Source of the DNA: Callorhinchus milii
Taxonomy: Eukaryota
Direction of reading: 5' to 3'
NCBI RefSeq assembly: GCF_018977255.1
Contig: NW_024704745.1
Span: 20,026,001-20,090,000 of the forward strand
DNA length: 64,000 nt
Shown here one piece after another: positions 1,545 to 24,232 of the stretch (position 1 is the stretch's first letter; each line of letters starts with the position of its first letter). The notes under the pieces were generated by a model, which saw only the letters and a program-made list of their open reading frames with translations, did no database searches and was not told the origin of the DNA. The translations under genes were made by a program, and so were the position numbers.

Positions 1545-1790
1545 GGCCTGGCTTAGACATTAGCAATCTCGAATCTGACATTGAAGGTAGTGGGTTCAAG
1601 GCCCACTTCAGAACTTTAAATGCAGTCTAGACTGACATTCCAATGCAGTGCAGGGATGCTATGCTCCACATTGTTATGGTGCCATCGAATGAAACATTAA
1701 ACTGAGATCCGGTTTCCCAGTTGAGGTGAACCCACAAGATACAAAGGCACTATTTGAAACGAGAAGAGAGTTTCTCACAAGACCACTATT
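1545..1790 (+). mobile_element. DeuSINE 5' part (degenerate)
   Basis: GGGTTCAAGGCCCAC B-box-like head, CTGACATTCCAATGCAG and AGATACAAAGGCACTATTTGAA shared with other copies. Confidence 0.6.
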
Positions 1791-2235
1791 GGTCTGGCTG
1801 AAGAAGATCCTTCGACCCATCCAGGGTTATCCTTCCAGAAGACCTATCCCCTTATCATTGATTCAAGCTGCTTTTAAAACTAATCTAGCGACCTGGCCTC
1901 TACTACCTTCCTAGCAACCTGTTCTAGTTATTGATTACCCTCTGCATAAAGAAAAAGTTCCTGGATTCTGTCCTGAAACTGCCATTCATATATCTAAACA
2001 TATGACCTTTGTTTTATTATTTTGATACAACCTTGATACAATCCTGGTATAATTTTGCAATCCTAATTAAATTGCTGTACACTTGAGTCCACTCTCAGTC
2101 ATCTCTTTGAGACGTCTTGATGTGATAAGTTGCTAAATCAAATGCAAGCATTATATAACATCATAAGCACTTGCTTATATATCTGGAGACAAGTTTTTTT
2201 ATTAAGCCATTATTAGTCCCTGTTTTTTTTTACAG

Positions 2236-2412
2236 CATGTTGGGAAAGATTATCCACCTTCTGGAAGATTTAAACCTGGTTTTGGAAAGAGAGGTTTTAC
2301 TATGCAATCTAAATATATGCGTGTATATGGTGTTGGTTTTGGATGGGCTAATCACAAGATATTCACTAAACACTTCAGGGAAGGTATAGCAAGAAAACGG
2401 AGAGATGAAAGG
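2236..2412 (+). CDS. BCLAF3: BCLAF3 (CXorf23)-like, penultimate coding exon (59 codons, phase 0/0)
   Basis: Acceptor TTTTTTTTTACAG|CAT and donor AGG|GTAAGG. Open frame HVGKDYPPSGRFKPGFGKRGFTMQSKYMRVYGVGFGWANHKIFTKHFREGIARKRRDER resembles the recalled human BCLAF3 C-terminus (YIQAKYQRL...FRERLMRKKK). Lies upstream of SH3KBP1 on the same strand, as in human Xp22. Confidence 0.7.
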
Positions 2413-3045
2413 GTAAGGAGGCAATATGTTCATTCAGATATTTATTTTGATCTTGGAGGTACCGTATTTAGTTTGTAATAAGATATGAATTTTCATTCTG
2501 CAGATTTTAAGTGATTGATTCTGCATTATGTTTCACCATTTATTAATATATATTTTCATTTCCTCTTTCCTGCCATGCAATATTCTTGTCACAAGAAGGT
2601 AGGCAAGTAACCCGCAGCCAGTGAAGGTCCATGAATGAGAGCTCAGGTTAATTTGCTGCTCTTTTTTAAATCGTCTGCTTACTTTCTTCACTATTTTCTC
2701 ATGGTAGTGTAGATATTTCTTTATAAAGGCCAAGGGACCATTTCTGCATTCAGAATCAAAAATTCATCACAAAGTGGAACAACACAATTTTCTTCCAGAT
2801 CTAACAGCCATATAATGCCAGAATATCTGTGCATTAGAACTTGAGAACAAAAAACATTCTTTCTGAAAGGCAATGTGCAATGTTGCAGTTGAATGGATAC
2901 ATGGTTTTACAGGTATAAATATCAGAGATTCTAATGTAATGTTTAATTTGTTCCCTTTTTATTTCCCACTTTCTCAAAAAGTAGTGATCTTTTGACACCA
3001 TATAACCCTCTAACAATTAACTTATTGCATTTTCTTCTCGACTAG

Positions 3046-3075
3046 GAATTACCCAGTAGTACTACAGACAAGTAA
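3046..3075 (+). CDS. BCLAF3: BCLAF3-like, last coding exon (ELPSSTTDK*)
   Basis: Acceptor TTTTCTTCTCGACTAG|GAA, phase 0 matching the previous exon; 9 codons then TAA, followed by a long AT-rich repeat-poor UTR-like tract. Confidence 0.62.
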   Translation, partial: ELPSSTTDK

Positions 3076-5450
3076 CTGATTTATTCTTGGAAACACTGGA
3101 ATCCACAAGTCTTTTTGGGAATATAATATCTACAGAAGAATGCACTCCTTTCAGTTGATGTTTATCTGTACCCTGTGATGGCTAAAGTTTGTACACTGGA
3201 CTACGTTTTCTACATGTTAATGGCATATATTTGCAAAAATATCTTTGATCTGGATTTTAGTTAAACTTGTTTTGACACAGTTTTTTGATGAGACCGCTGT
3301 TTCCCGTTTACGATATTTTGATCAAATCTTTTCTCCCCTGTCCACCTCAGCCTTTTGTCTTAGTTTTTCTATAAATGCTAATTTACTCATTAACCTGAAA
3401 TGGAGAATATAAAAACACTAATAAACATTGAGATTCTGTTTACATGAAACTGTACGAATCAACGCATGATGCACCACGGTAGAAAATAACTGCATAGTAC
3501 ATTTATAAACCAGTAAGAAGCTTGAGGTGGATTTATAATTAATTCACATATGCAGAGGGAGAGGAAGAACTAAAATTTTATCTTGCAATGAGTGTCTAAG
3601 CTCCCCTTTGAAGGAGGATAAGCAGCAGGTGATTTTGTTTGATGTCAAACATTCTTTCAGTTTGTAAACTTTGCCAATAGGGTTTCAGATTTTGCTGGAG
3701 GTAAAGTATTTTTTGATTTCAGCACATTTATATCAAACAGTAAAAGTGATTCAGTATGAGAAATAGATCTTTGCTGTTTCACTGGTATGGGAATTATTTT
3801 CTGATGAGACCAGAGTAAATTGTGTATGGAAAGAAAAGTGTCAAAATTGCTAGAAATTTGAAGGAAAAGTTACAGCAAGTAATTTGTTTCTGAAAGGGAA
3901 AAATTGGTTGTTTCAGAGATCTTTTCATCGTTGTGTGTTGTGAAGAAAGCATAAATTTATTTCAGTAGCTTTTTCACATGTGCATTTCCACTGTGTAGAG
4001 GTTGGAATAAATAGAGAGATCGATAGTAAAGCTAAGAAGGAATAGTGAAGAAAAGTTAGAAATCTAGTCATAAGGAAAAGAGGGATACAAAAAATAGTGA
4101 GTATGGTATTGGATGATTATAAAAACGGAATGAGAGATTAAAAGAATCATATTAGTCATAGAATTGGTTGATTTTGTTCACTTTCCGTTTGTCCTGTGGT
4201 TTTGTTTTAGTGTATCAATTTCTCCGCGTAATATTTTTTAAACCAGTGTTGTACTATTTTTTCACATCTTTATGGTAGTGTCCAATACAATTCCAGAATA
4301 AGAATACATGTTGGAAGTGAACATTTAGCCTCCTGTACACGTTCAAAATACCTAGGTGGAAGTGCTTTTTTTGTTGGTAAAAATGGAAATTTGGTTCTAC
4401 AGAAAATGGAATATTTTATTCTGTCTCAAGAATTGGAACCACGTTAACTTTTCCCCTGGACCAGAAGGTCAAACTTTTCGAATGACTAAACATGACTATT
4501 ATGTAATGCTAGATTAATTCACTTCAACATCTAGTTAACATTTAATTCTCATGCAGCTTGAATATTAGAATGCAGTATTTTCCATGGAAATAACTATGTA
4601 TAACACCCACCATCCCTTTTTAAACCATGATAGAATCTGCTGTTTAGATTACTTTTTTTATACAAACACCTGGATAAGATTTCGTCAATAGGGTTTGCTT
4701 TATTATGCTTTAAAAGCCCAGTGTCATTGCATTAGCCATTGTCAGGATTTACATCTGTACTGAACCAGCTCAGGCTATTTCCATAATGTGGTAATTCTAA
4801 CCTCATCCACAGTTGGATTTGAATAAAAGTTGTGAATAGTGTGACAATATCACAATTTTGTAATGACATGTTAGCATGCGAGAAAATATTCTTCCTCTTG
4901 TTAATGTATTGGTCGTTCATTTAAAACCTTAAGATTTTTGAAAGTCTATGCAAAGATTTCTACCTTGTATGGATGCTTTTGCTTTTACCAGTTTTTGAAC
5001 CCATCTTGTTGGTTTAAATATGTAAATAACGTAAAAAAAATTAAAATCTGTACACTAGTTTTTTTGCGTGGTTATGTTTACCTTTCCACCAAAACTTATA
5101 AATGTATTAGTAAGTGTTTCAATGTGGATTTTTATTGTTTAATGTGATCCCCTTCAATACTCTTAAGACAATTGCAGTGTCAGGGACTCAGAACTGACGT
5201 GAAGCTATTTCTATAGTTGCATCCTTGCCTTCATCTATCAGGTTTGTGACTTCCTTTGCAGTATTGTCATTTTGAAATTAATAATTGAATTCTGCAATAG
5301 GTAGACTCTTCATTTTTAAGATTTTTTTGACCCAAATGCATTGACTGTATTCACATGCTTATGTATGGTTTTGGTTGTTTATTTTAAAATCGGCATAATC
5401 TTCTTTGACTCACTTGTTTACTGCATTAAATGTTCATCTATTGCTTCAAT
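3076..5450 (+). other. Putative BCLAF3 3' UTR
   Basis: AT/U-rich and free of the SINE/LINE copies seen elsewhere; poly(A) hexamers AATAAA (~3420, ~4822) and ATTAAA (~5425). True end not determinable. Confidence 0.45.
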
Positions 5451-5859
5451 CTGTATTTGTTGTGGTTTTTGTATTGTGCATGGCGAGTATCTTCATATAT
5501 TTGACTATCATAATTTTATTTCATCAGTTAATTTGTCACATGCCGAAAGATCACTATTCTAAAGAGTTTCCAATCCAAACTACTGTGAGTTAGGCATATG
5601 CATAGTTCTACATATGCATGGTTGGTTTTATCCTACATGTCCAAACCAGGAACCTCCTCCTGGATACACACCTCTACCCAGTGAGCATGATTTCCATCGG
5701 TTTGAAGTGAGGAGCTTCAGTACTTTCCCCTGGTGCTGCTGAGACCCCAATCCACACTTTTATCACATTATGGTTTGGTTATTCCAATGCTGAACTCCCC
5801 AGCTAATCCCTACACAACTGCAGACCATCCAGAATTCTGCAGCTCATGTCCTCTGCCAC

Positions 5860-6075
5860 ACCGGGCTCTGCCAGGCTATCAACCCTCAGCTTCGCTTTCA
5901 CCACTGGATCAAATTCAAGAATTTTGTTCTCGCTTTCTGCGACATACTGCTCCAGCTGCTCCCTTTACTTGGCAAACGTCAGTCACGCCTTCCACCCACC
6001 ATCGGTGGGTGAGTTTTCAGCTCTTCTGCTCATGCTCTCTGGAACTCCATCTGGAGTTCCCCTGCCTTGACCCCA
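5860..6075 (+). mobile_element. L2 LINE 3' fragment (degenerate)
   Basis: CCACCATCGGTGG...TTTTCAGC...CTCTGGAACTCC motif shared with L2 copies at 13.8, 36.2 and 49.0 kb. Confidence 0.5.
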
Positions 6076-6585
6076 GCAGGTGCTGTTTACTGCTCAGAGT
6101 TATCAATCTTGGTATGTAGCAAGCCTGTATACATAAGCATGGTCACAAACCTAACACTCCAAGTCATGCCTTCCAACAGTTGTAGTATACTTAATTAAGG
6201 CCCTTATTTATGCCTTTGCAAAAAGAAATTCTAGCTTTGAAGCTGACTGGCTCTGGAGTGTTTTAGCAACAGACCAGTGCAAGCTGGTGCTTACTCCTGG
6301 ACTTTGCAAATGGGCTGGTTTATATAAAAAAAACTTTTTTGTTGCATGAAGAGGAACTTTTAGAGTTGTTTGGATACATGTTTATGCTTTACAATCTCTT
6401 CCTCAAAATGCACTCGTCTATCAACACCCCCAACACTGGATTACCGCCCTTTTGTCCACTGCCCCACCCACCCCAACAACTTGGGTGGCCAGACAGTTGT
6501 TTGAAGCAATTTGAGACATCCAACGTGAGATACTGTATATAAATTATAAATGTGATTTAGAATTCCAGCCATTATCTATCTTCTA

Positions 6586-7105
6586 TCTATACTAATAAAA
6601 CAGCAATGTCTGTCTGCTTCAAGAAGGATCTCAATAACCGATTGACATAGAGACATAATACCTCATCAGAAAGTCTTACTTCTCGGAGTGACATGGGCAT
6701 ATTTGTTTATCAGTATCTCCTTTGGTTCATGAGTTATTTTCAGTTTGGGTCTTTTCACAAGTTACACCCGGTGGCCGCCGAGTCAAAGTGGTGCTCTGTC
6801 ATTGTGTGTCACAGAGCACTTACGTATGTACGTATGCACTGCACTTACATCTGGTGGCCGCGCTGGCTGACCGTGGTGCTGTGCATCCAGCGTCACGGAG
6901 CATACACGTAGCCAAGCGGCGCGAACAAAATAACACAAATTAAGCTAAGCCACGGCAACAACAAAATAAAATTTTTAAAGCACTGAGTCCTCCCAAAAGG
7001 ACTTCTCCTACAGGAGTCCTCCCAGGTGAGTATAGATAAAAATTAAATGTCTATATCAATCTACATTCCATTTGGATCCTATGGTTGCGAATGTAGCTGC
7101 TTCTA
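6586..7105 (+). mobile_element. Non-autonomous Helitron-like element, copy 1
   Basis: Begins A|TCTATACTAATAAAA (Helitron-type 5' TC end); homologous to copies at 24.7-25.1, 39.8-40.0 and 51.3-51.7 kb, one of which ends in hairpin + CTAG|T. Confidence 0.65.
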
Positions 7106-7257
7106 AATAATTGAATATCCAAGTTGTTTCAGCCTGTTGAGAGATTTAATTGTGGGGGACAGTTTTGATGTCTTAACAAGTTTGACAATTATCCTGAATC
7201 ACACGTTTTATGTCCACTCTCAGATTCCCAGAACTGGATCGGGTACAATCTGATCGC

Positions 7258-7680
7258 TTAAGGTTGTTGCTTAAGGTTGTTGTTATTGGACCCCACACAT
7301 TCATCCTTAGTGTTCCTGTTCAAAAGAGGTATGCAATTGGAACTTTCTGGGGAGCAGGGATCTGTCACTGGACATGAATCCATCATATGGTAAGGATTGG
7401 TCACAAAGCATTTACAAAGGGGTCTTGGCGCTATTGGAGAGCACATGGTCATTTCAGGGTATGAAGGCACAGGGCAGTTGATAATCGGACCCCCCATTAA
7501 TGTTGGGCATACCGTTTTCAGAGGATATAATTTCAGCTGAGGGTATATCTTCCAACACAAATTCCTCGGAAAAGGTATGGATACTGAGGTGGTTTGTGCG
7601 GGCTTGCAACATGTGTTGGACGGGAAGCTTGAGCTGCTGCGTCTTGTCTCCAGGTTTCCTACACAACATCTCCCATACAT
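7258..7680 (-). CDS. Unrecognised 140-aa Cys/Pro-rich protein, single coding exon
   Basis: Minus strand reads branch-like CTAAT (~7724-7720), pyrimidine tract TTTCTATTTTTATTCACTATAG|, then GAAATAGAGCCACC-ATG (consensus GCCACC Kozak) at 7680. 14 Cys and 20 Pro in 140 aa; ATTAAA ~110 nt after the stop (7150-7145); not similar to any repeat seen in the window. Confidence 0.6.
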   Translation of the reverse strand: MYGRCCVGNLETRRSSSSFPSNTCCKPAQTTSVSIPFPRNLCWKIYPQLKLYPLKTVCPTLMGGPIINCPVPSYPEMTMCSPIAPRPLCKCFVTNPYHMMDSCPVTDPCSPESSNCIPLLNRNTKDECVGSNNNNLKQQP

Positions 7681-8128
7681 GGTGGCTCTATTTCCTATAG
7701 TGAATAAAAATAGAAACTGATTAGCATGAAAGTGATAAATAGCTGTTCTGATATTCCTTTGCTATTCATGAGAGAAGAGTTAAGCAATACAAACACTAAA
7801 TTAAAATAAGCTTTATATTATCTGACTAACCCCAGTAAAGGTTAAGAGGACAGTGAATGCAGCAATGACATAATATGATTATCATAAAACTTTCTGACTC
7901 TTCATTATGACACATCATAAAGCTTGCTAATGAAAATGTGTCATTATGCACCTGTCTAAATAACTACAGTCGCCTCACTTTACAGTAAATCCTATGAATT
8001 GCTTTTGAGACATCCTACCATGAAAGGTGTTCTATTGAATGCAAGGATTATTATAAATAATATCTACAAATATTATTATAAATAACATCTTTAAATATAA
8101 ATTATCTACAAACTGAATCTGAAGTTGT

Positions 8129-8230
8129 GTAGATTCAGAGGAAATGTCTTGTTTACAAACTTCTGATAAGCAGTTACTGGTAGATTCAAAGGAAATGTCT
8201 CGTTTACAAACTTCTGATAAGCAGTTACTG
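8129..8230. repeat. 51-bp direct tandem duplication
   Basis: GTAGATTCA(G/A)AGGAAATGTCT(T/C)GTTTACAAACTTCTGATAAGCAGTTACTG twice, 2 mismatches. Confidence 0.9.
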
Positions 8231-9009
8231 GAAACTCAAATCAAAAATGTGTGTTGATTATAATTTCCTTTAATTTTTAAGCAAATTGTGTTCGAATTAT
8301 CTCATTTGCCTCACACAAGCATTTCCTCAAATTGACTTGTACGTTAGATCTGCCGGGCGAATCTCTTCGAATTTGTCCATTGTGTTCACTTGGGGTGCAA
8401 TATGACCATTTCATATGACCTGAGCACAATGCTTCATCACAACACATGTGTTCTCAAACATCAAACTCCACCATTGTTCAGCGCTCTCAAATGCTACCCT
8501 GTGTGAAGGGTGCTATATAAATTCAAATTGTTTGAAACAACAGGTTAAATCAAACTATGTTAATAGATTGTTGTCTTCATGAGACCATTAATTGCAATAT
8601 GTTGCAACTTCTGTAACTTCTGTAATGCTTCTGTAATGCCTGGTACTTTTCTATTGTGAATTACACCACCCCCAAGAACAACAAGTGGTGGTATAGCCTG
8701 AAGGGTAAAATCCAATTGAGTGGAGGATATATAAAACAAAAACAATTCATTAAAAGAGGGACGATAAGTGCAAAAAAAGTATCAATGAATGAAATGGAGT
8801 TCTAGAATTTATAAAATAATCTACCAATAGCCTCATGATGGGCCATCACTGGAGAGCAGAATTTTGAAGAAATAGGTGTAGACAGATAAATTCAATGATG
8901 TCTGTGTTGCTGGAGTCAGAGGAAGGGAATATTGTCTGTGGAGTGGAGGACGCCAGGATTGCCTGTGTGAAGCGTGAGTGGTCTGGATTATTTCCATGAT
9001 TATCTTCAC

Positions 9010-9235: not shown

Positions 9236-9737
9236 AATCTTTTCACACTCAGAACAAACCCATTAGGATACACGACATTTTTTAAAATTCAAAATTCAAA
9301 TTCAAATTGAAAAATTGCTTGGAATCCTGAAATATTCAGGATCTTTGTTTACCTCCTGTCAACCAAGCGCAGCGTTTTCAAATAGTCTAAATTGCACTGA
9401 GCTGGTTTCGGCAGTTACATGCTCAAGTGTTTGTTGCAATTAACTTTTGATTAAAATCTTGTCATCCAACAAGCATCGCCTCTCTGATTTACTGACTCGG
9501 CAACCCTTCCCAACTGAACCAGAGCGGGCAGCGTTCGAGAAGATTAACCGTGACCCTTAGAACCCGCACAAAGTGTGGCAGATTTGAAACCTTCTGAAGG
9601 GTACGCGGCGGGTGAGGGTGGGGGGGTGGGGGGGTGGGGGGGGGCTCTAAATGTTGAAAGGTCAAGCTTCTAAAACGAATGCTCCTCACTCCTGAAAGAG
9701 CGACACTCGGTAGAATTGAGACGAGATAGCATTCTCC

Positions 9738-9838
9738 GTCCATCCATCCATCCGTCCGTCCGTCCGTCCATCCATCCATCCGTCCACCCGTCCTTCCGTG
9801 CTTCCTTCCTTCCTTCCATCCTTCCGTCCTTCCTTCCC
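9738..9838. repeat. Compound (TCCA/TCCG/TTCC)n microsatellite
   Basis: Direct reading. Confidence 0.9.
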
Positions 9839-10394
9839 GACACCCCAGATCTCAAAAAAAAAAAAAATTTTTTTGCAAATGTTTCAAATGTTGTTGTTGT
9901 TTTTTTGCCTAACACTGGCCAGTCTGACGTGTGAAATAGGTCCAGCGCAGGTGAGTTCGATGTGCAATCGGGGGTTTGAGCTGCGGTCCATTCGCCCATC
10001 TCCAGCCTTGGTGGGTTGTGTGTGTGTTTTTTTTGGCCCCATCTGCCACCTCCTTGACATTGCGCGGTAGCCCCGCTACGTGTCGCTGCAGCGCCTGTGC
10101 GCGCGTGTGCGTGTGTGTGTGTGAGAGGGAGAGAGGGAGGGTTCCTGTGTGTCGAGTCCCTGCAGTGCACACAGATGGTAACTGCTGTAGTGGAGGCTGG
10201 AAACCCCGAGAAAAGGTATTTCATCATTTTATCTTTGAACTCACCCCTCACCCACCAAACCCCCCCCCACCCCCCACCGCCGCCATCACCACACCCCTCC
10301 GAAACTGGGCATACGGTGGGAGGAGGAGGAAGGAGGAGGAGGAGGAGGTGATGGTGCTGAGAGCCTCAACATAAACAGTCGGGGCAAAAAAAAA

Positions 10395-10439
10395 ATCATC
10401 ATCATCATCATAATAATAATAATAATAATTTCCCCCCCA

Positions 10440-10474
<35 letters not shown>
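10395..10474. repeat. Compound (ATC)n(ATA)n and (CA)n(GA)n microsatellites
   Basis: Direct reading. Confidence 0.9.
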
Positions 10475-10636
10475 CGCTCGGTGTGAGAGTGCAGCGGGTC
10501 CCGCACAGTCCAACCCCCGTCACGGTAACCGGGACCGCAGTGTCGCCGCTCTCGACGCGGACATATCATTCTGCAGCTTCTCTTACTCCATCTTAGATTT
10601 TCCTCTCGGGCGGGCGGTCGGCGCGCGGGGCGGCGG

Positions 10637-11020
10637 GTGAGTGAGTGAGTGGGTGGGTGTGTGCGGGTGAGTGGGGGAGGGGGTGGGGGGTGTGGGTGGG
10701 TGAGGGGTGAGGGGGGGTGTTGGTGAGGGGGGGGAGGGGGGGTTTGGGTGACGGGGGTGAGTGAGGGGTGAGGGGTGCGGGGGGGGTGTGGGTGAGTGAG
10801 TGGGTGAGGGGGGGGTGGGAGGGAGGTGAGGGGGGTGAGGTGAGGGGGGTGGGAGAGGGTGTGGGTGAGGGGGTGGGAGGAGGGGGTGGGAGGAGGGGAG
10901 GGGGTTGAGGGTGAGGGGGTTGGGGGGAGGGGGTGGGAGGAGGGGAGGGTGAGGAGGTGTGGGTGGGGGGGTGAGTGAGTGGGTGAGGGGGGGTGGGGGT
11001 GAGGGGAGGGGGAGGGGGTG
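10637..11020 (+). repeat. G-rich low-complexity tract (GGGTGA(G)/GGGGA units)
   Basis: Almost C-free on the + strand, immediately after the donor at 10636. Confidence 0.85.
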
Positions 11021-11199
11021 CGGTCGGTTGTTTAAGCCGTCACTTTGAATGGGACTTTAGGCCTCGCGCCTCCCCCGAGCGGCCGAGTTTGAGAGGCCTC
11101 ACCGGCCCCGACCGGTCCCCGCGTGCGGCTCAAATTTAGCCCGAGACAGCGGCGAGCCCGAGGCCTACAGACCGCGGCCATCACCCGGGCCCCGAGCAG

Positions 11200-11702
11200 T
11201 GGGGGGGGTTTGCTGAGGGGAGGGGTGGGGGGGGTTTGCTGAGGGGAGGGGGTGGGGGGGGGTTTGCTGAGGGGAGGGGGTGGGGGGGGGTTTGCTGAGG
11301 GGAGGGGGTGGGGGGGGGGTTTGCTGAGGGGAGGGGGTGGGGGGTGGTTTGCTGAGGGAGGGTTGGGGGGGTTTGCTGAGGGGAGGGGGGGGGGGGTTTG
11401 CTGAGGGGGGGTGGGGGGGGTTTGCTGAGGGGGGGTGGTGGGGGTGGTTTGCTGAGGGGAGGGGGTGGTGTGGGGGGTTGCTGAGGGGGTGGGGGGGGTT
11501 TGCTGAGGGGAGGGGGTGGGGGGGGTGTTTGCTGAGGGGGGTGGGGGGGGTTTGCTGAGGGGAGGGTTGGGGGGGGTTTGCTGAGGGAGGGGGTGGGGGG
11601 GTGGTTTGCTGAGGGGTGGGGGGGGGGTTTGCTGAGGGTGGGGGTGGGGTGGGGGGGGTTTGCTGAGGGGAGGGGGGGGGTGGGGGGGGGTTTGCTGAGG
11701 GA
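11200..11702 (+). repeat. G-rich minisatellite, unit ~GGGGGGGGTTTGCTGAGGGGAGGGGGT
   Basis: About 20 tandem TTTGCTGAGG cores separated by variable G tracts. Confidence 0.9.
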
Positions 11703-11811
11703 AGCTGCTGTGGCTGTGCTTTCTGAGCACAACTGCTGCTCTTTCTGAATCCTCGCCTGGAACCTGTGAGTTACACTGCAAAATTCTGCCATTGAATTTT
11801 TTTTGTGTATA

Positions 11812-11977
11812 AATATATATATATGTGTGTGTATATATGTGTGTATATATAGATACATATATGTATCTAGGGCTCAGGTGATTGATATATGTGTGTGTGT
11901 ATATATATGTGTGTGTATATATATGTGTGTGTGTATATAAATACATATATGTATCTAGGGCTCAGATGATTGATATT
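11812..11977. repeat. (TA/TG)n microsatellite with duplicated ATACATATATGTATCTAGGGCTCAG..TGATTGATAT unit
   Basis: Unit occurs at ~11852 and ~11941. Confidence 0.85.
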
Positions 11978-12604
11978 TTTGCAGTTCGCACGAGCGATGT
12001 GCTTTCCGTAAGAGAAATGGAGTGAAATGTGTGGTACATTGGCGACGTGCAGGCGTTACGGAGTGATTTTAAACCGTTGGGGAGAAGCTGGGCGAGCTCT
12101 TTTCTTTTGAGGTAAATTGCCCGTGTGGTTACGGTGCAGCAGCAAGCTTTGTGCCATCGGAAGTCGTCGGACGCGTGCTCTGGCTGTGCTTCGCCCACCT
12201 CACGTCCAAGTGTTCCTTGGGCAAGTTTGTACATCTCCTGAAAGCTATTTACACACCAGCAATCACTGGTCACGTGTATGCTGTGAAAATGGCTAGAGTT
12301 GGTCCTGTTAATCCTGTATTATTTCATGCGGAGACAGGCTGGCTCTGCTTTTCCCCAGATGTGTAATAATAACAATAATCCTTGCAGTTGATAAAGAACC
12401 TATGGAGTCAAAACATCTCAAAAGATTTCATGCGCAGTTGCTGTCATCCATCGGTCATCTTCCCAACCCCATCCTTCTTAACCTCCAATTCTCTTGATTC
12501 CAACCCCCAGCTCGGGTGCAAACCCTTCACTGTCCAGCGCCTCAGGACATTATTCGCACGTGAAAAGCGCTAAATACATCCAGTTTGTTGTCGTTTTTGT
12601 TGCT

Positions 12605-12910
12605 GTTAAATGTGGTGATTTGAGTATTTGTATGCAAATGTGGCAGCCAATTTGAGCACACCAATATTCCACAAACAGCATTCAAAGTGAAGTTTTTTTT
12701 TATCCTGAACACTGTTGGCCAGAACACCGGGAGAAACTCCCTTGTTTCTGAAATTGATCACAGGATCACGAACATCCACCTGAACAGAGAAATGGGACAT
12801 TGGGTTAATATGTCTTGTAAAGGATAAATGTAGTGCTCCCAGCTAGGACTTCAAACTCAAGTGCTAAAATGGGGCTTGAATCCACAACCTTTTGACCCAG
12901 ATATCTGAGT
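12605..12910 (-). mobile_element. DeuSINE
   Basis: Reverse complement contains GTTGTGGATTCAAGCCCCA head and CAGGTGGATGTTCGTGATCC Deu core. Confidence 0.65.
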
Positions 12911-13749
12911 GATATGCTGAATAGTCTCCTCCTGTTCCTATTTTCTTATTAGTAATTTGAGCCAGGCCAATACCGTTATTCAGTTCTAGTTTAACGTCAG
13001 ACCATACTAGTGCTGTTTTTCTTTCTTTACAATTATTTTCATTGAATTTTTTTCTCCTGGGTTAAATTAATCAAATAGTGTTCCTTTCGAGGCATCAAAA
13101 TTTTAAGGGAATGTCGTGCCTGTTTCCACATTGAAGTTGTTGATTTGGATTGGGGTGAAGATGTTTGTCTATCCATGGTTGCTGGATCTAGTGTCATTTT
13201 TTTGGATTTTATTTTACATTTACCCTCCAAAACACCATTGGAAGACCAATAGGACAGACAAACCACTCATCTGCAAGCCATGAGAAAACATTTTATTTGG
13301 TCTCATTCTCCAGTTTATCTTGTTTACGTCTCCCTCTACTTCCTGTGGCAAGTCTGAGATTAAGAACGGCAAAGCAGTAAACTTACCAGGCAGCTAGAGT
13401 AGGAAGTATTGCTCATTTCCTGACAATGTAACTGCTTGTCTTCCATCATCACCAAACCTGGTCAGCAGTCTTCCAGATAAATTGGTCATTCAACTCATGA
13501 TTATTTGAGGGATATTCCTGTGCAAAATGGAACCATAAAAAATTATGCCACAGAAGAAAGGCATTCGGCCCATTGTCTCTGTACTGACTCCTTGAAAGAG
13601 CAGTCCTTTCAGTCCCATTTACCTACCTTTTCCCCATACTCCTGAAGCTCAATCCTTTTTAGTTGTTCTTTAGTTAAACTATTCTCCTAGATTTCTCACT
13701 CCTGGTTTGGACTTTTTCAACCTCCCTGACCTCTCTCTCAAATTCACCA

Positions 13750-14350
13750 AATCAATATGCAACCTTGGTGTCTAGCTCCACCCTCAGCCCTCCTTTCTTC
13801 CTCACATCCAGTCTCTGACCAAAACTTATTTTCTTCACCTCTGCCACATTATCCACCTCCACCCCTACCTCACTGTAAATATCACCAAAATCCTTATTCA
13901 AGTCTTATCAAATCCTGGCTGGATTTTTTAAATGCACTCCTCGCTGTTTTCCCTCGCTCCACCATTCATAAACTTCAACATCCAAAACTCTGCTGTCTGC
14001 ATCCTTGTCAGCACCAATCTTTGCATGTTCATCAGCCGAGTTTACACCAGGCTCCATTGGCTCTCTGTCTCTCAGCAGATCAATTTCAAGGTCTCAGCCA
14101 CACCACTTCACGTCCTAGTACCTCCTTATGTTTCTGATTTCCTACCTCCATTCTTCTGCTTACCCCTCTGATCGGCTGACTCAGGCTTGAGTGCATCACC
14201 ATCAGTGGGCGAACTTTCCATTTCTATGCCCCTAACTTCTGGAACTCCTTCCCTCAACTCATTTGTCTCGGCTCTCTCTGTCTTCAATTCCCTCCTTAAG
14301 ACCTACCTCCAACTGGCCAGAGATCACCTCTTTTCCCCCTCCACTATCCA
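13750..14350 (+). mobile_element. L2 LINE 3' fragment (degenerate RT C-terminus)
   Basis: Translations such as KLQHxQNSAV..TRLHWLSVSQQINFKV are typical of the L2 ORF2 C-terminus. Confidence 0.75.
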
Positions 14351-14624
14351 CCAGATTGGCATTTGCCCTGTCATTTTAAAGCACTCCAAAATGTTATATA
14401 TAACCTAAGATCGCAGTTTTGAGCAATACTTAAATAGCTGTCTCATTTTTGTACAAAAAATAGCAGTTGACTACATATTAATTACTGGAAAGAGCATTGG
14501 AATGTTTTGATGTGATAGGATGCTATAAAAATGGAAGTTCTTCTTTCTTTGATATGCAATTAATATTTGTTTTTCTGCATTAATTTGCAACAGAGAAGAA
14601 GCGGAAGACTTGAACTTGGACAGG

Positions 14625-15707
14625 ATGGAAGCCGGCACGTCTGGAGAGAGCGCGCCTGGGATTAACCATTTGTTCATAGCATCCAGTGGAGAGTATTGCA
14701 TTAAAGTCTATGATGACGAATCAGAAAGGTACTCCGTATTACAGGTATCTGATGACGAATCGGACATCACTGATATCTCAACAGAGGATCCGGACTCTGA
14801 ACTAAATGACACTGGATCCAGTGATCAAGGTTGGAGCAACAGCTTCACTCCAATCCAGATCAATGACTTCTGTGGAGAAGCAGGAGTGTTGTTCCCTCGA
14901 GATTTCGATATCTCCGAAGCAACCCCGCTGGATTATTTCAGCCTCTTCCTACATTCCAACTTGTTCAGCGATTTTGTGGAGCACACAAATAGCTATGCCA
15001 GATGGAAAATGGGGCATGAGGGGGCAGCAGATGCCAGGTGGGTGGATGTCAGCGAGGTTGAAATGAGATGCTACATTGGCCTCAATGTACTGATGGGAAT
15101 TAATCAGCTGCCGAACTATAAACTGTACTGGAGCCGGGACAACTTGTTTGGAAATGATGGGGTGAAGAGTATCATGACCTGCAATCGTTACGAAAAATTA
15201 ACTGAATACTTTCACGTGAGTGACAGGCTGTATGACACCAGTGGACATGACTCGAACTTTGATGCCCTGTACAAAGCACGGCCGCTTCTTGACACAGTTC
15301 GCGCCAGCTTCAAAAAGCTGTATCGGCCGTCCAGGTACCTAAGTGTAGACGAGGCAATGATTGCAATGAATGGTAAACTGACGTTCAAGCAGCACATGCC
15401 TCCGAAGCTCAACAAAGGGGGGGTTAAAGTGTGGATGCTGTCGGATGCTGAGAATGCCTACCTGCTTGATTTTGAAGTCTTTCATGGGCGGCGCGGCGTT
15501 AAGACCTCAAAGAACGGACTCAGGTACGAAGCTGTCAGAAAATTAACCAAAGAGCTCGAAGGCCAAAATCACTGTGTGTTTTTTGACAGCTTTTTCACGT
15601 GTGAGAAATTGATGATGGACCTGCTGGATGCTGGGATATATTCTTGCGGGATGGCTCAACCCAACCACAAGGGTTCCCCAAGGATCTCCAGCAGCTCACC
15701 AAAATGA
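14625..15707 (+). CDS. piggyBac-derived transposase (PGBD4-like), N-terminal ORF (360 aa from ATG 14625)
   Basis: Acceptor TTTTTCTGCATTAATTTGCAACAG| at 14593/4 and AGG-ATG-G Kozak. Acidic N-terminus, then piggyBac motifs TPLDYFSLF, W..V...EMRCYIGL, YWS, MTCNRY, SVDEAM (first catalytic Asp), FFDSFFT (second Asp), GIYSCG. Confidence 0.85.
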   Translation: MEAGTSGESAPGINHLFIASSGEYCIKVYDDESERYSVLQVSDDESDITDISTEDPDSELNDTGSSDQGWSNSFTPIQINDFCGEAGVLFPRDFDISEATPLDYFSLFLHSNLFSDFVEHTNSYARWKMGHEGAADARWVDVSEVEMRCYIGLNVLMGINQLPNYKLYWSRDNLFGNDGVKSIMTCNRYEKLTEYFHVSDRLYDTSGHDSNFDALYKARPLLDTVRASFKKLYRPSRYLSVDEAMIAMNGKLTFKQHMPPKLNKGGVKVWMLSDAENAYLLDFEVFHGRRGVKTSKNGLRYEAVRKLTKELEGQNHCVFFDSFFTCEKLMMDLLDAGIYSCGMAQPNHKGSPRISSSSPK

Positions 15708-16321
15708 AAAGAGGCGAGTATCGAGTGCAACAGAAAGGGCACTTAACAGCAATACTATGGCAAGATACCAAGCAAGTGGCGATGATGAGCACTCTGAGTG
15801 ACCCAATGGAGGAGATGTTGATCCAGCGAAGGCAGGGGCAGGAGGTGATTGAAGTCAGGCAACCTCACTCAATCTATGTCTTCAACAAGTATATGAATGG
15901 AGTGGACAGGTATGGACCTCTGCGTGCCCACTACCAGGTTGGAAGACCAGGCAAAGAACACTGGAAAAACATCACCTGGTTCGTGATCAACTGTGCCATC
16001 CTGAACGCATTTATCCTCTACAAAGAGACCTCGATCAGAGTCAACAAGAAGAAGAACTATTCTCACCTGGACTTCCGATGCGAGTTGGTGCGGCAACTGA
16101 TCGGAGGTTACAGCAGCCGGAAAAGAAGAAGTGTTCCAATGGACGACAACTTCGTTCTGCATAGAAACGTGGTGATGGGACACGAGTCTGTGCACATGGG
16201 CTACAAAAGACGGTGCAAAGTTCACCTGCAGAAAAAGGTGCGAAAGGAGACAGTGTACGGATGTAAAATCTGTAACATTCATTTGTGTAAAGACGGATGT
16301 CACTTTCAGTATCACAAGTAA
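15671..16321 (+). CDS. piggyBac-derived transposase, C-terminal part in the -1 frame
   Basis: GFPKDL..KMKRGE, WQDTKQVAMMST, YMNGVD (third catalytic Asp), INCAILNAFILY, FRCELVRQLI and Cys-rich end RCKVH..TVYGCKICNIHLC..GCHFQYH*. Joined to the upstream ORF it gives ~565 aa. Confidence 0.85.
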   Translation, partial: GFPKDLQQLTKMKRGEYRVQQKGHLTAILWQDTKQVAMMSTLSDPMEEMLIQRRQGQEVIEVRQPHSIYVFNKYMNGVDRYGPLRAHYQVGRPGKEHWKNITWFVINCAILNAFILYKETSIRVNKKKNYSHLDFRCELVRQLIGGYSSRKRRSVPMDDNFVLHRNVVMGHESVHMGYKRRCKVHLQKKVRKETVYGCKICNIHLCKDGCHFQYHK

Positions 16322-17419
16322 AACTCATATGGGGGAGAAAAAAACAATTCATTGCACATGGACTGTAAACAAGTTCTTTCTTATACATCTCAACTCTTAT
16401 TCAAGTGACAAATGCTCAAATTTACAAAAAGCAGGTATAGGTGGACAGTTTAACAAAAATGTTTTTGTACAGCATCCAAAACGGCGCCACAATGTTGCAT
16501 TTTTCCTTTTGAACCAACACAAACATTCTGCTTTGTAGGAATGTTATGTATCAGTGTTAAATACATCACTAGATTTGAGCGAGAACTGTAGGTATAGTCC
16601 ATACTTTACCCAAACGGACCAGGACTGCTGTGAACTGAAAAGTGTATTGTACAAGTGAGCCATGTGCATTGAAATGCTTATTTCATAAGTGATATATATT
16701 TTGGCCAGACTGGATAGGCGCTCAAAGCATTCATCCGTTGTTTGAAGGGCTTCTATAGCAGAGACTGGTCGGATGGACTCAGCAAGACCTCAAACAGTGA
16801 CCTCAACAACTGAAGTCTTTCCAACAATCACACAGTGGCCAGTGTTAACTGAGGTGCCCCATGAACAGAATAGAACAATAATCGAGAAATTTCCTGGTCA
16901 AATGAAATACGTTCCGTACAGATCCTGTATGAGTCAGATTAATTCAATCCAATGGTTTTGGATTGCAAAGCCATTTAAAAGCAATGGCATATCAGGAGGT
17001 TTACAGAATCTACACAGAACTGTTCTATTCCTGTAAAAGACTTGGTTATTAGTGCCCTCCTCTTCCTGTCATCAACATAATGTTGCAGATGACCTAACTC
17101 CCTTTCTATGATGTGACGTGGTGTGTAACTACACAAAATATTCAGGGACCATATCACAAGAGCAAATGATGGCAATGAACGATTGACAGCTGGAGTTGTA
17201 TGCACTCTTTTTCCACACGCACCATAGGCAAGTGCAGCTGCTTTCTTTCTCCTGCTTTTGTCTTGTTCTGTTTAGTTGCCTGTAGCAGGGAGTTGCTATA
17301 GCCAGAGGTGAGCTGCGATGGAATCGTATGACACGATCACATGGGTTTGGATGAAGAAGGCTCTTCCATTGAATCTCGTCCTTCCAAAATGCCCATCTTA
17401 ATATCTTCTTGCTACAATA

Positions 17420-17810
17420 TTAGAGCTGAAATGGGTGCTTGCGCAACTGTGCAGCCTGGTTATCTTTTACAGCTTTGGTTAGTCGCTGTGTAAAGAAATA
17501 CTTCCTGGAATCTGTCTGAAAATGACACTTTGCAATCCTGTGACCTCTTATCCTGCTACCTTGATGTATCTGAAAGCATTGTTCTGGGTATGCTTTCTCA
17601 ATCCCATTCAGCATCTTGTATATCTATATAAGGGCCCCTCTGAGATGTCTCTTTTCCAAGACTAAAGAGCTCCAGATCCGAGCTTATCCCTGTAACATGG
17701 GATCATCCACATTGCCCTTTTCTGTACTGCCTCTGGGGGATGGGCAGTCCTTATGCTCCGGAGACTAGAACTGTACACTATGCGCCAGATGTAACTTCGC
17801 CAGAGCCCTC
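17420..17810 (-). mobile_element. CR1 LINE 3' fragment (degenerate)
   Basis: Minus ORF ...RIRGH....FQTDSRKYFFTQR is the typical CR1 ORF2 C-terminus. Confidence 0.7.
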
Positions 17811-17811
17811 A

Positions 17812-18200
17812 TAATAATCATCCTTGTATAGCGCCTTTCAGGTCGGGAGGACGTCCAAAGCACACAAGATTCACTGTGAAGTGGAGCAACTGTACATCTG
17901 TGGGCGAACGGGGCAGCCAATTTGCGCACAGCAGTGTTCCACAAACAGCCATAAAGTGAACGACCAATTCTATTTGGGGGATTGTTGGCCAGGACACCAG
18001 AAGAAATTCCCTTCTCTTTTTTGAAGAGTGCCATGGGATCTTTAACGTCCACCTGAACAGATAGACAGGTTTAACGTCTCATCTAAAGGATGGCATCTCC
18101 AACAATGCCAAACATCCCCAGCTCTCCTTTGGAGTGTCAGCTTAGACTATATGCGTTCAAGACCTGACGTAGGGCTTGATGCCCCAATCTTCTGAGAGCT
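17812..18200 (-). mobile_element. DeuSINE, near full length
   Basis: Reverse complement: CAGGTGGACGTTAAAGATCCCATGGCACTCTT...GGCTGTTTGTGGAACACTGCTGTGCGCAAATTGGCTGCC...GAAAGGCGCTATACAAGGAT. Confidence 0.85.
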
Positions 18201-21200
18201 TGAGCTCAACATCTAGGGATCAGAACTGATTTGGCAATGTAGACCGGTATTGTGTTTGCTTATTGCTGCCTCCCTTTTTGGACAGGGTGAGCAATGAACA
18301 CTTGTAGGTCTTTTTCAACGTCCTCCTTGATGAATTCTAACCTGTCAATGGAGTACATATACCTACTATTTTTACTACTTGTGTGCGGTAACTTACATTT
18401 ATCTGAATTGAACTTTGTTTGTTTGCTCAGATACTTAGCCTGTTCAGCTCTCTTTGTAAGATCTTGGCTGCCTCCTCTGATTTCACAGTAACCCTGGTGT
18501 CAGGAGGAATGCAAACTGAAATGCTATTGCACATGATTTGAGCTGCACTGTCATTAGGCTTATTCCGCTGCATGTAATGGAGAATAGCACTCTGTATATA
18601 TTGTAATAGCTCCCCTAAGGGATTCAGACCCTGTGATTTTCGATCGATGCTGCTCGCTTCATTTTTGAGGTGGGGTGGGGCAGTCATGAGGAATATAAGC
18701 TGAATGCAAATTTATATTTGGAAACAAATCGAATTGAGAAGTGTAACAATTTACTTTCTAATCCGTTCATCACCAGCCAATACTGACCAGGTTTGTTGAT
18801 ATCTTTGCTTATTTTAATCTTTAGTCAATGTTGGCAGTTTAGAAATACATCTCTTACTAAAACTGATTTTTTTTGAAAAAAAGTCAATAGCCTTGCTGCT
18901 CTCTACAATTATCACGTATTATAATTTGAAGAAGTCGTATGCTTTATTTGTCATCATGAGCTGCTTTTTGTGATATTTATTATAGAACGATTTATTTATT
19001 AAAGATCGGGTGTTGAAGGGGATTACAACACCACTGTTCTGCATGTAGCAAATGGGTTCAAATGCAGTACAGGAAAGTAAACTAGATGTCTCTTGTCTCT
19101 GGCAGTTTTCATGCCTCTTTCATGCTGATGGAGCAATTTAACATTGGTTCCAGCAGTGCAGAGATTCCGATTGGGAAGCTCAATTATACTGTGTTCCCTG
19201 TATTGCTTTTTCCAGGGGCTGAGCAGACCCTGCAAATGTGTAGCTAGGTGAATGCGCAGAGCAATGCTGTCGGGCATCAAATGCTGATAAATGGTTTAAT
19301 GATATTAAAGGGCCAGGAATGTAGACCGCTCTGTAGTTAACATTCAAGAGCCTAAAATTATATTTTTTTAATCGTTAAAAGTTCTCTGGAATCAGCTGCG
19401 GCAACCCCAGATTTATATTGGTATGAACAAATGTATATTGATTTCATTCTGAAACCAGTCCTGGAGATGTGCTCAGGAGAGTGGCTCAGAATCAAAGCTA
19501 CTTACTAAAAACTGCACTTTTAGCATCAATTCATGTGCAGTATGAATAGGACATACGTGTCCTAATTTAATTGAACTTTAGTATTTACAGCATAGAACAT
19601 ATGGCGCAGAGCTGCCCATAGTTTGTCATCATTTGGGCAACCAACCTTGTTCAAAAAAAACCAAATAAGAGCTGGAATGGGAGATGAACAATGGTGCAGG
19701 ACGGTTACTTTCTGAGGCTGATTTAGCCACGTATAGACGGGGAAGAGTAGAGGGAGCTTTACTTCACATCAAATGTATGCTACACCCAATCCATCTGATT
19801 CTGTACCTGGGAGGAAAACATTCTATTCCTGGGTACTGAAGTCTCTCCTGTTAGTGAGGACAATATTTACAAAAAAAATCCAATGTCTTTAGTCCCAATG
19901 AAAATTCTTGTAAGTGTTTTGAATCAGTGTAGTAAATGTTGATACTTAGGTGTCCATGAAGAACACTTAAGTGAAAATGAAGAAACATTGCCTGATTTTA
20001 GACAATTCTTCTTAATGCTAAGCATTAAATCATACCAATAATGACAGCAGAACAGAAGTACAAAAATATGTTGGTTTGTATTTAAATACAGCCAATACCA
20101 GTGAACCAGTAGGTCAAAATAGCTGAGTAGTTGTTACACATTCGATGCACAAAAAATGCTTTATGAATAAGCACATTATTATGTATTTTAAATAACTATC
20201 GTCTTTTGCAAAAATGTAATTTTTAGGTTTAATTTTGTTTTAGATTTTCTTCTGTAATGTTCTATATTTTTGGATATTAAAATTCTTATTTTCAAATGTA
20301 ATCTGTCTGTGTTAATTCTGGCTGAGATGTGCACAACCATTTTATACTTTAACCCAAAGGGAAGTTACTCAAACGATTTTGGCTCTTGTTCACTGGTGTT
20401 TCTCCTGTGTTAATCCTAAACAGCCTGCTGTTTTCATTAAGGGTAGCAGCTCTAAATATTAATGTGCTGTAATTTTGAAAAAAAAATCTAATCTCACAAT
20501 TGCTTCCAGTAGAACTTCTTGCATACTTGGGATTAATTTGGTAATTTCTAACAGTATTCCTTAATTCAGGAAACCTTCAGTAATCACACAGAAGTACATC
20601 CGTGCTCTTGACCATCACGTTTGGGGCAGAATTCCTGCAGATCAATGTGAGATAACTCAGATTATCAGAAGGAGTACCCACTCAGATTTCCTTACTTAAG
20701 AAACCTGTTAGAAATGACCATTTTATTGGACCCCAATGTAAGTCAAATGTCATCTATTGCTGTCTAACATCTCAATTATTGTTGCCAAAATATTCAAGAT
20801 ATATATTGACGGCAGTACATTCTTAATTCCACTTAAAATTCCAAATCTGGGTGACATAAATCCATTCAATTTACAAGAAATATTGTACATAGCCACCTAA
20901 TATTACTTGTCTGGGGGAGTTTTTTTTAAGTCAAACTAATCAAACATTGTGAAATTTCTGAACCACTTGGCTTTAAAGCCATTGTCTATTTTAGCTTGTA
21001 TCAAGATTAATGCATTTTGAAATGTGAGTTAACTTTGTCTCATTTTGTGTCTGTCTGTTTCTAACAAAAAGGTTGAAATTAGCACATTGGCATGCATTTT
21101 GTGTCTAAAATTTACATCATTTGTATTTTCTCTATCTTAGAACTTCAGTCCTACTAAATGCACAGTTTATTTAACTTCATTTTTGAACCTAGTAAATGTT

Positions 21201-21799
21201 TTATTATTGTACAAGACAAATGTAAAAAAGTGAAATAAAATCAATGATTATTAAATGTGGTGTAAAAATTGGAGTTGTTTTTATTTTGTAATATTTTTAC
21301 ATAACATTTTACAGTAAAACTAAATTATTTCGTGCATATCAATGACATGTCCGTTTCAAACGTTGTTGCAAGTAAGCACAGTAGTGTTCATTTTTGGGAA
21401 AAAGTTTAATATTAATCCTTACACTTGATAGTCAAAATGTTTCTTTCAAAGTACTTCATAGTAATGTCTCTAGAAGTGTAGTGACTATTTCTAGGTAAAC
21501 ACAACATTCTGACCAAAAATCCCCCATATAAAAATTGGTCATTCACTTCATGCCTATTTGTGAGACATTAGCCCTGTGCCAATTGGGGATGGGAAAATAA
21601 AAGGTTATTGGTACCTCTCAACATATACCTCTTTAACCGAGCTTTCAATCATCTAACCATCCCCAGCTTCTTCAGCTCCCACCCCAGCTTGGGTGCCCAG
21701 CCAATATTGTCAGATGCTTTGAGTGTCCTTCCAGTGTGAAAGGCACAACTGTATATAAATGTAAATGGTATTGTATTGATACTCCAGGACTAAAACTAC

Positions 21800-22280
21800 C
21801 AGCAACAACAACTTGCATTTATATAGTACCCTTCACGCCGGATAGTGGCGGACCCTGATGCCGAGCCAGGGAGAGAGGGATGCTGACTAGGCATGGTCGA
21901 AGAGGAAGGTCTTCAAGGCGCAACCTGAAAATGGGGATTACGGGGACAGGGTGAAGGGATTTAGGGAGAGAGTTCCAGTTTTGGGGCGTAGTGGCTGAAA
22001 GCACAGCCGCCGAGGGGCTGAGGGTCTGGGAGACCAGGAGGCCGGAACCAGTTGAGCGGAGGCGGCAGGAAGTAGTGTAGGGAGAGAGCAAGTTGGAGAG
22101 ATGGGGGGGTGCCAGGGCATGAAGGGATTTGCTCTGTGACGGAGCCAGTGGCGTTTGACAAGGATTGGGGTAATGGACATATGGAGTTTAGTGCAGATGA
22201 GAATGCGGGCGGTGGAGTTTTGAATTAGTTGAATTTTGTGAATGGTGGAGACCAGTGAGGAGGGTGTTTGAGTATTCGAG
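21800..22280 (-). mobile_element. L2 LINE 3' end
   Basis: Minus ORFs ITPILVKRHWL, RLRSTGSGLL..NWNSLPKSL; (TTG)n tail. Confidence 0.8.
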
Positions 22281-24232
22281 TAATCAGTGCTCCCAGCAAA
22301 AGCAAAGGTTAATTTGTGAGTTGTTTGTCTGTGTTACAGTTGGCTCCAGTTGCTCTGAGCTTTTTTCTCACCTGATGTAGTAAACAATGAAGTATATATT
22401 AGGTGACTAGGGTATAAAATGTATAATTTGTAATGGGTTTCCTCTTTAAGTAGATTTTGTTCGAGTGGATTTCCCACAGGTCAGTGTGATGTACTTCCAG
22501 TTAAGGAAGAAGTTCCCATTTACATTCCTTCACCGTTAAGAAATCCTTAAGAAATATTCAAATTAGACCCCAAACAGAACCCTTTGTGAGACCTCAATTC
22601 CGTAATGCAGGAAATTTAAACCACTGAACATTACCACTAGATGGAGTCTGTGCTTTTTAAAACCAAAATGTGTTTTATTATATTCACTGCTGGATGATGC
22701 TGTGCAGAAAATCCAACTGTTCAGAGGTTGCTCTCAAGTTAGCAGGCCTGAGGCCTCTCACTCACATTTCCATCGTCACCCACCCTGTAGCCTCTTATTT
22801 TCTTCTTTCGCTGGTGTTATAATGCGGTTAGATTTTACTGTGGGTCAAACACTAACGTCCCAGTCAGAAGCCAGTTACTAATAAATCCAAAAGGGTAAAA
22901 TATGATGATATTCAGTCTCTTACATTATTCCAAATGGTAACATTAATGTCTTTCTTGCATGTTGTAACTGCTCGGAGCTCTATAAATAAGTTCGATTTAT
23001 ACTGAATACAGAAAAACAGGAGAAAATAGCCATTCATACCCACTTCACTGGCACAACAATTTTTGGGCAAAATCATCCACTTGAATTAACATGGACACAG
23101 AGTAGACATCCACTCTTAACTTGTATATCCTTGAATCTATTCCCCATTTTCATATTTACCAGCATTAAATAAGTCCTGCCATTTTTCAATTGTGGATCAC
23201 AAAGATATCCAGTGATGGAGTAGGAGCTTGGTACATTGCTCAAATCTGGAAGAGTGAGAACATGTGTTACTGTATTTATTAAAATAATACAGGAATATTT
23301 AATAGAGGATGGAGCTGTGTGACGGGGTGGAACTGAGTGACACTATGAATTGATACAAATACTGAGGTGCTGCTGAAATAAGGTTTTTTTTCCTGGCATA
23401 ACATCAAAAACTCTCCTTGTCACAATCCTGTAAAGAAAGGCCTTAATAACCTGAATCCATCTGCCCAGTGTATGCCATCCTCATTTTCTCTGCACGCCTC
23501 CAGCATTCCAATAACACTGAGTGGGTGTTGCCTTTCCATATCCACCCAGTGATATTTAGGGCTGTAACAAGCAGGTCTGTATTTGATCTGTCCATGATGG
23601 TTTTATCAGGAAAATGAACGTTACTTCTTAATGCCATATATTTTCACCCACACAAAATATACAGTCAATTCACATTACAGTATATTCTGTGAAGCACTTT
23701 GAGATGTCTCGAAGACATTATAAGGTGATATATTAAATGCAATGATTCTTTTTTTATTATTATTGTACAACATCTCTTTGGAGTTGGTGGATACCATTAG
23801 AAGTGACATTCATTTTGCAATCAGAACCAGATTGGATGGACACACTGGAATTTCACCCATTTGTAATCCGAGTTTCGCCATGGTTTGGTGACAATATTAC
23901 TCCTGGTATGTAGTACACCCTGTCATTTTTCAATATACTCCAGGTAAGCACTAAAACTGCTTCCTAAGATCCCCATCAACCCGTACCATCCCCTCCCCAT
24001 CCTGCCTCGGTTCAACCTGTTGTATTTGTGAATTCCAGCTTTTTTAAAATTAAATGCACCTGAGAGATGGCAATAATAATAATAATCCTTGCATTTGATA
24101 TAGCGCTTTTCACGTCGGGAAGACATCCCAAAGCGCTTCACTAAAGGAGGTTGGTTTCACTCAGTACTCAAAACTCAATAACAAAAACTTTCAATGTTAC
24201 TACATGTAAGTAAATCATGATAAATAATGCAG

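Follow-up and report, generated by a model that had tools for sequence, protein, structure and literature searches.

Gene structure and neighbourhood

The window, by which we mean the whole 64,000-nt stretch of Callorhinchus milii DNA that was analysed, carries on its forward strand a piggyBac-derived transposase gene whose 565 codons lie within one exon (Table 1). Positions 10175–10215 match the N-terminus of the annotated 589- and 384-aa isoforms (P0036 and P0034, respectively), and P0036 continues in phase from the acceptor that ends at 14593. An earlier note on this DNA had outlined the gene without this upstream coding exon, which makes the 589-aa isoform. Contig 23 of the public sequencing run X5 starts at 14592 with 79 letters located elsewhere, as a spliced transcript would, the RNA status of X5 and likewise of runs X9 and X13 being the tool's guess. 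Reads were aligned from position 12000 on, and the joint between exon 1 and exon 2 rests on RefSeq models, not on direct reads. The CpG observed/expected ratio is 0.72 for 9500–10700 versus 0.34 for 1–9000, and transcription appears to proceed from the CpG-rich region near 10–11 kb. Another candidate first exon lies at 10460–10645 (+); its donor (CGG/GTGAGT, ~10638) is strong, and the 565-aa isoforms could start from it.

Downstream of the acceptor, X5 contigs cover 14592–17853 and 18032–19000 (alignment extended to 19000), and the second of these has 2184 further letters that would carry it to ~21184 if colinear. The first AATAAA past the stop codon lies at 21234, to which the 3' UTR probably runs. 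Depth in X5 was ~110 on the exon contig versus 3–6 on intron contigs, a difference given no weight because contigs cannot rank gene parts; X9 and X13 are without intron cover, which was likewise given no weight as evidence.

Table 1 Features of the piggyBac-derived gene and its surroundings, in positions of the window.
Feature	Position	Strand	Basis
Upstream exon in CpG-rich region, coding part (MVTAVVEAGNPEK-R, 13 codons + 2 nt); followed at 10216 by a GT donor	10175–10215	+	N-terminus of P0036/P0034
Inverted, decayed piece of this piggyBac element, lying within the intron of the gene 1.6 kb upstream	13060–13199	-	matches 14804–14943
Splice acceptor of the transposase exon: pyrimidine tract, ...TTTGCAACAG	14570–14593	+	sequence; X5 contig 23; P0036
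Coding sequence of the piggyBac-derived transposase, unbroken in reads but split in window; 565 aa when started at the internal Met, 589 aa when exon 1 is included	14625–16321	+	
First catalytic Asp, D242 (SVDE)	15348–15350	+	
Second catalytic Asp, D321 (FFDSFF); next residue Ser, Asn in relatives	15585–15587	+	
G run one base short (GGG), the apparent frameshift	15671–15673	+	reads with one more G, 4/4 runs
ATGA overlap: ordinary internal Met361 then Lys; TGA in the wrong frame	15704–15707	+	
Third catalytic Asp, D428 (GVD); G431 and P432 in place of the fourth Asp and the Gln after it	15905–15907	+	
C-terminal Cys/His-rich domain: C531 ... C547, C550, H553, C555, C559, H560	16214–16303	+	aligned with relatives
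Long 3' UTR (probable), reaching about as far as the AATAAA at 21234	16322–21250	+	

Short matches suggest names for the neighbours of the gene. A THRAP3_BCLAF1 match (G000:C4:20022007-20022105, L012; one short exon scored) lies 4 kb before the window and is likely, we assume, BCLAF3, while an SH3-domain exon recognised by Pfam at 52268–52459 (+) is presumably the first SH3 of SH3KBP1/CIN85. Frames upstream of the BCLAF3-like gene (L008, L011) we take to be MAP7D2-like, giving the order MAP7D2, BCLAF3, piggyBac gene, SH3KBP1 on one strand. BCLAF3 and SH3KBP1 are adjacent in human; if the neighbours are so identified, the gene has been inserted between the two. A Pfam scan of 264 of the 307 open frames of at least 55 aa in the window (the gene's own and some overlapping frames left out) gave two matches, neither of them part of the gene.

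The protein has the DDE_Tnp_1_7 domain, the DDD triad (D242, D321, D428), and the C-terminal Cys-rich domain of the piggyBac superfamily. Its structural model has a mean pLDDT of 74.5, with an acidic, low-confidence N-terminus and a Cys/His-rich domain modelled at pLDDT 77–89. The PF13843 domain, triad, Cys-rich tail, and fold are shared with piggyBat (PDB 9C0F) and Trichoplusia ni piggyBac (PDB 6X67/6X68), for which 9C0F and 6X67 gave profile E-values of 5e-87 and 3e-60 and Foldseek E-values of 6e-30 and 2e-25, respectively, with TM scores of 0.72–0.73 by target. Unlike these transposases, to which it is 22–24% identical in structural alignment, the Callorhinchus milii gene is apparently spliced to host exons, has a replaced fourth Asp, and has no terminal repeats that we could find. 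The fourth Asp may be involved in excision according to the available text of PMC5381638; its position is Gly in the Callorhinchus milii protein. Across 125 columns invariant in 13 relatives, 20 are changed here, versus 0–10 for each of 14 relatives, whose counts are lowered by near-copies among them.

A one-base gap in the assembled coding sequence

As it stands in the window the coding sequence is split between two open reading frames: ORF1 at 14553–15707 (+), with a Met at 14625 and 360 aa from it, and ORF2 at 15605–16321 (+), in the -1 frame relative to ORF1. They are two halves of one domain, because ORF1 matches positions 1–243 and ORF2 positions 240–349 of the PF13843 model. The letters at the junction (15669–15683) read AAG GGT TCC CCA AGG. 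A TGA at 15705–15707 overlaps an ATG at 15704–15706, so the ATGA stop/start overlap described in the earlier note is present in the letters. Protein P0001 (XP_007889898.1, 565 aa) is identical to ORF1 over its first 350 aa and to ORF2 over its last 216 aa, bearing out the statement that there is no further stop or shift. The description of an otherwise intact piggyBac-type transposase with a single -1 shift holds for the letters of the window but not for the organism, whose reads carry an extra G.

A search of public runs listed 24, 20 of them with the whole or part of the stretch, and four, carrying four study codes, were aligned over 12000–19000 (X1, X5, X9, and X13). All four have a G inserted behind 15670, and in each it carries the whole depth of the contig over the site (7.89/7.89 in X1, 109.6/109.6 in X5, 16.8/16.8 in X9, and 3.4/3.4 in X13). 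The window's GGG form was absent from every aligned contig of these four runs, such contigs being ones that drop rare variants. Three of the four contigs extend more than 31 letters beyond the site in both directions (X1 14392–17852, X5 14592–17853, X9 15392–15976); the X13 contig (15647–15807, depth 3.4) has ~24 letters to the left of the site and was counted as weak. Checking reads for an additional base at the junction had been suggested in the earlier note, and such a base was indeed found, albeit as a G in the run at 15671–15673 rather than the T of its example.

Once the G is added, H-K-G-F-P-K-D is read continuously. XP_007889898.1 (565 aa), XP_007889897.1 (589 aa), and UniRef A0A4W3IBJ4 (534 aa) are unbroken across HKGFPKD, and these lengths are those of the three continuous members of the five-member P0001 cluster. 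Its two truncated members (384 and 360 aa) end as ORF1 does and are annotated on a contig of 81,177,816 bases, a length equal to that of the window's contig (G000:C4). The lost base lies within a G run adjoining a C run, and loss of a base in a homopolymer is a typical long-read consensus error. Since all four sequencing data sets carry the missing G, we are confident that the apparent frameshift is a one-letter homopolymer error of the assembly and that the gene is one continuous frame with ordinary decoding. The error has been carried into RefSeq: version 1 of XP_007889897 has 589 aa, whereas version 2 has 384 aa and a PGBD5-like label. Comparative studies would thereby mistake the gene for a truncated one or for PGBD5.

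The first of two options in the earlier note, a 1-nt homopolymer assembly error or null allele, is supported by the extra base in 4/4 runs, and an error rather than a private allele is the most likely cause of the missing base. A real loss-of-function allele of the assembled animal, heterozygous or homozygous, with the common allele of the species intact, seems very improbable to us. The window does represent a haplotype of its own, separated from every covering run by six substitutions (16327, 16737, 16905, 17626, 18181, and 18626), and the comparison involved Logan contigs, which keep one allele, from runs other than the source animal's own raw reads. Nonetheless, the three-G form occurs in 0/4 runs, the loss sits in just the kind of place where consensus errors arise, and frameshift alleles in constrained genes should be far rarer than such errors. 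Small indels between the window and the runs were also seen at 13320, 17656, and 18084.

The second option of the earlier note was recoding or split expression, in which -1 programmed ribosomal frameshifting (PEG10-like) or AUGA stop/start reinitiation would yield a short and a long product. Four successive in-frame heptamers (15668–15677) have at most one mismatch from XXXYYY, and the ATGA overlap exists in the window. However, as the note itself had remarked, a perfect X_XXY_YYZ heptamer is absent from the junction, the best being one mismatch away, and heptamers with one mismatch occur at 27/357 and 10/213 in-frame positions as background. Nor is there a strong downstream hairpin, again in agreement with the note: in a calculation covering structures without pseudoknots, 70-nt windows downstream fold at -12.3 to -13.0 kcal/mol, and 61–69% of coding windows are more stable. 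Overlap with an in-frame ATG is found for 9/28 shifted-frame stops, and the ATG at 15704 encodes Met361, common to 8/14 non-fish relatives at that alignment column. The ATGA overlap and the near-slippery heptamers are at chance level. The split is not conserved, the frame being unbroken across the shift site in 19/19 aligned relatives, which are relatives rather than true orthologs. Recoding is unneeded because contigs resembling spliced RNA carry the continuous frame; the continuous frame in the reads rules out both frameshifting and reinitiation, to which we leave virtually no probability. With PEG10 and retroviral -1 programmed frameshifting the Callorhinchus milii gene shares no more than the appearance, in the present assembly, of two frames that overlap; it is without perfect heptamer, stimulatory structure, or conserved split and is continuous in reads.

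Relation to known piggyBac-derived genes

The proteins nearest to the Callorhinchus milii protein are 50–53% identical, and the named ones come from bivalves. Ray-finned-fish proteins of 639–673 aa follow at 35–38% identity; from their length, host, and label, set against the accessible part of PMC5381638, we infer that this set (P0076–P0087, P0112) is the NeoPGBD group of that paper. A quick tree was built from 47 rows and a careful tree from 25 chosen rows, with long branches and near-copies left out. In the careful tree the protein falls inside a clade of 15 rows (support 100/99) that excludes the ray-finned-fish NeoPGBD-type proteins. An AU test rejects a joint clade with these proteins (p 0.007), the group for the test having been named after the quick tree was seen. 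On sequence comparison, the protein is placed with mollusc-type piggyBacs and not with PGBD5 or the ray-finned-fish NeoPGBD.

Some motifs hint at a different history, in which the gene would be the cartilaginous-fish ortholog of NeoPGBD and the domestication would belong to jawed vertebrates. D-S-FFT at the second Asp, YQVGRP, GINQLP, and an end at H-K-stop are common to the Callorhinchus milii protein and the ray-finned-fish proteins. Against this, identity is 37–38% to NeoPGBD-type proteins versus 50–53% to invertebrate transposases, and orthology is rejected by the careful tree and the AU test; we consider it quite improbable. Single-copy state, intactness, a PGBD4-like label, a related piggyBac clade, and some motifs are likenesses to NeoPGBD as presented in the portion of PMC5381638 at hand. 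By contrast, NeoPGBD has 649–682 aa in that portion versus 565/589 aa here, the Callorhinchus milii gene keeps D at all three catalytic positions, and it has a splice acceptor that one contig appears to use, whereas the same text gives no splicing signal 5' of NeoPGBD.

The primate exon trap PGBD3 (CSB-PGBD3), as described in the available sections of PMC2268245, resembles the present gene in having a whole transposase frame in one 3' exon, with entry through a splice acceptor and an in-frame junction to an exon further upstream. The Callorhinchus milii gene differs in adding only 13–14 upstream residues and no host domain, and in belonging to a different lineage. It also differs from PGBD3, within the compass of those sections, in that no family of non-autonomous copies was found for it beyond one fragment.

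The likeness to PGBD5 consists in the name that RefSeq gives to the truncated XP_007889897.2. A piggyBac-domain exon elsewhere in the genome (L004, G000:C3:77586429-77586824, -) is 29–31% identical to the protein (29% over 139 aa). Its motifs are, we assume, those of PGBD5, and this exon is likelier to be PGBD5 than is the Callorhinchus milii gene on C4. PGBD5 is a multi-intron gene in the consulted text of PMC5381638, and PGBD5 identity is ruled out for the C4 gene, whose coding sequence is one exon of 565 codons. The PGBD5-like label of RefSeq on the C4 gene is misleading. Another locus (L013, G000:C1672:6982-7302, -) holds the 3' part of a distant piggyBac transposase at 24–27% identity, which runs off a contig of 7,306 bases.

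Transposon copy or domesticated gene

Several near-identical genomic copies were looked for in DNA, protein, and family searches of the species' own genome and were not found, the counts being lower bounds. Each of two DNA queries gave at least one match and one candidate, the gene locus itself. The protein search gave at least four matches among seven candidates, of which two are the gene, one is the decayed fragment in its intron (L005), and one is the 29–31% identical exon on C3. The family search adds at least two more, the distant and partial one on C1672 and, on C3, a weak copy that is broken. Inverted arms flanked by TTAA were not found: the best agreement among 19 x 59 TTAA pairs (10216–14625 and 16321–24000) was 10/14, and of the 66 inverted pairs in 12000–22000 the 25 longest included nothing resembling a TTAA-flanked end pair. 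The gene is single-copy among the scored candidates, with an intact frame and no ends found, as in a domesticated gene.

The intronic fragment is identical to the gene at 98/140 nt (70%), 28 of the 42 differences being transitions, which corresponds to a K2P distance of 0.40. It has three stops in its 45 codons versus none in the 565 of the gene. This fragment is the only close relative of the gene found in the genome.

Changes at the invariant columns are conservative, with a mean BLOSUM62 score of 0.45 versus a neutral expectation of -0.60 +/- 0.39, and 12 of 5000 simulations reach 0.45. These changes would need ~0.08 neutral changes per site. Under neutrality 5.7% of frames would stay stop-free at 0.05 changes per site and 0.6% at 0.10, hence ~1–6% at the load needed, even without indels. 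X1 differs from the window at two coding positions, synonymously each time (2/2, p 0.11), and polymorphism at 2/1728 coding versus 7/1531 3' sites (Fisher p 0.09) is a weak signal. This pattern of substitution would fit purifying selection, which may have operated ahead of the insertion, in a transposon lineage that has not been sampled. The CpG observed/expected ratio is 0.65 in the coding part (14625–16321) versus 0.34–0.35 in the depleted flanks, and this retention also fits a younger insertion.

We think it probable, from sequence evidence, that the gene is a domesticated host gene and that its domestication was a separate one. This judgement weighs the single copy, the missing ends, and the conservative changes against possible selection before insertion and the retained CpG. 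As a mechanism, which we hold to be probable, we suggest that an exon-trap insertion, having lost its ends, persisted as a host gene of two exons, and that its product would be a nuclear DNA- or chromatin-binding protein. Little or no transposase activity would be expected of the product because 20 residues invariant in relatives are changed, several of them beside the active site. The origin would be a piggyBac lineage otherwise sampled in molluscs.

Alternatively, the gene may be a lone, passively transcribed piggyBac copy that was never domesticated and is intact because its insertion is young. The nearest proteins are transposases, the coding CpG ratio is high, and the excess of changed invariant columns over that in relatives could be decay. 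Furthermore, piggyBacs bear natural splice acceptors in the part of PMC5381638 available to us. However, neither terminal repeats nor sister copies were found in the searches of the genome and the window, the sister fragment is far diverged and broken by stops that the gene lacks, and the changes at invariant columns are conservative. A young, undomesticated copy is in our view unlikely.

For domestication in its fullest form, our confidence is a little better than even. This would be a chimaera-lineage event separate from PGBD1-5, KOBUTA, and NeoPGBD, in which a transposase from a lineage known otherwise from marine invertebrates inserted between the BCLAF3-like and SH3KBP1-like genes and was captured as a spliced host gene. 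With its three catalytic Asp kept, the product may be a working host nuclease or a DNA-binding regulator of cartilaginous fish, and the one-base error would have hidden the gene in the present annotation. We found no description of the Callorhinchus milii gene in the literature searched; the supplement of PMC5381638, which lay outside that search, may list it. As a modest lead, the intact gene probably adds one to the independent piggyBac domestications of vertebrates.

Protein searches for orthologs returned 33 and 57 matches, with nothing between 53% and 99% identity. A second cartilaginous-fish protein was not found among the named rows of the best 150 of 20,184 representatives, of which most rows are unnamed and 10/150 were looked up. 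Runs X14–X18, from a second organism, share 0.15 of sampled words, which would correspond to ~94% identity if even, and were given no weight.

Elsewhere in the window, a CpG-rich block at 43000–45000 is probably the promoter of the SH3KBP1-like gene. Two degenerate direct copies of a ~55-nt GC-rich unit (GGTGGCCGC...GTGGTGCT...GTCAC.GAGCA...CGTA) surround a palindromic TACGTA at 6756–6910 and are perhaps a repeat end. A weak reverse transcriptase fragment at 57929–58153 (-) (RVT_1, E 3e-4, below the cut-off) looks like a LINE remnant.
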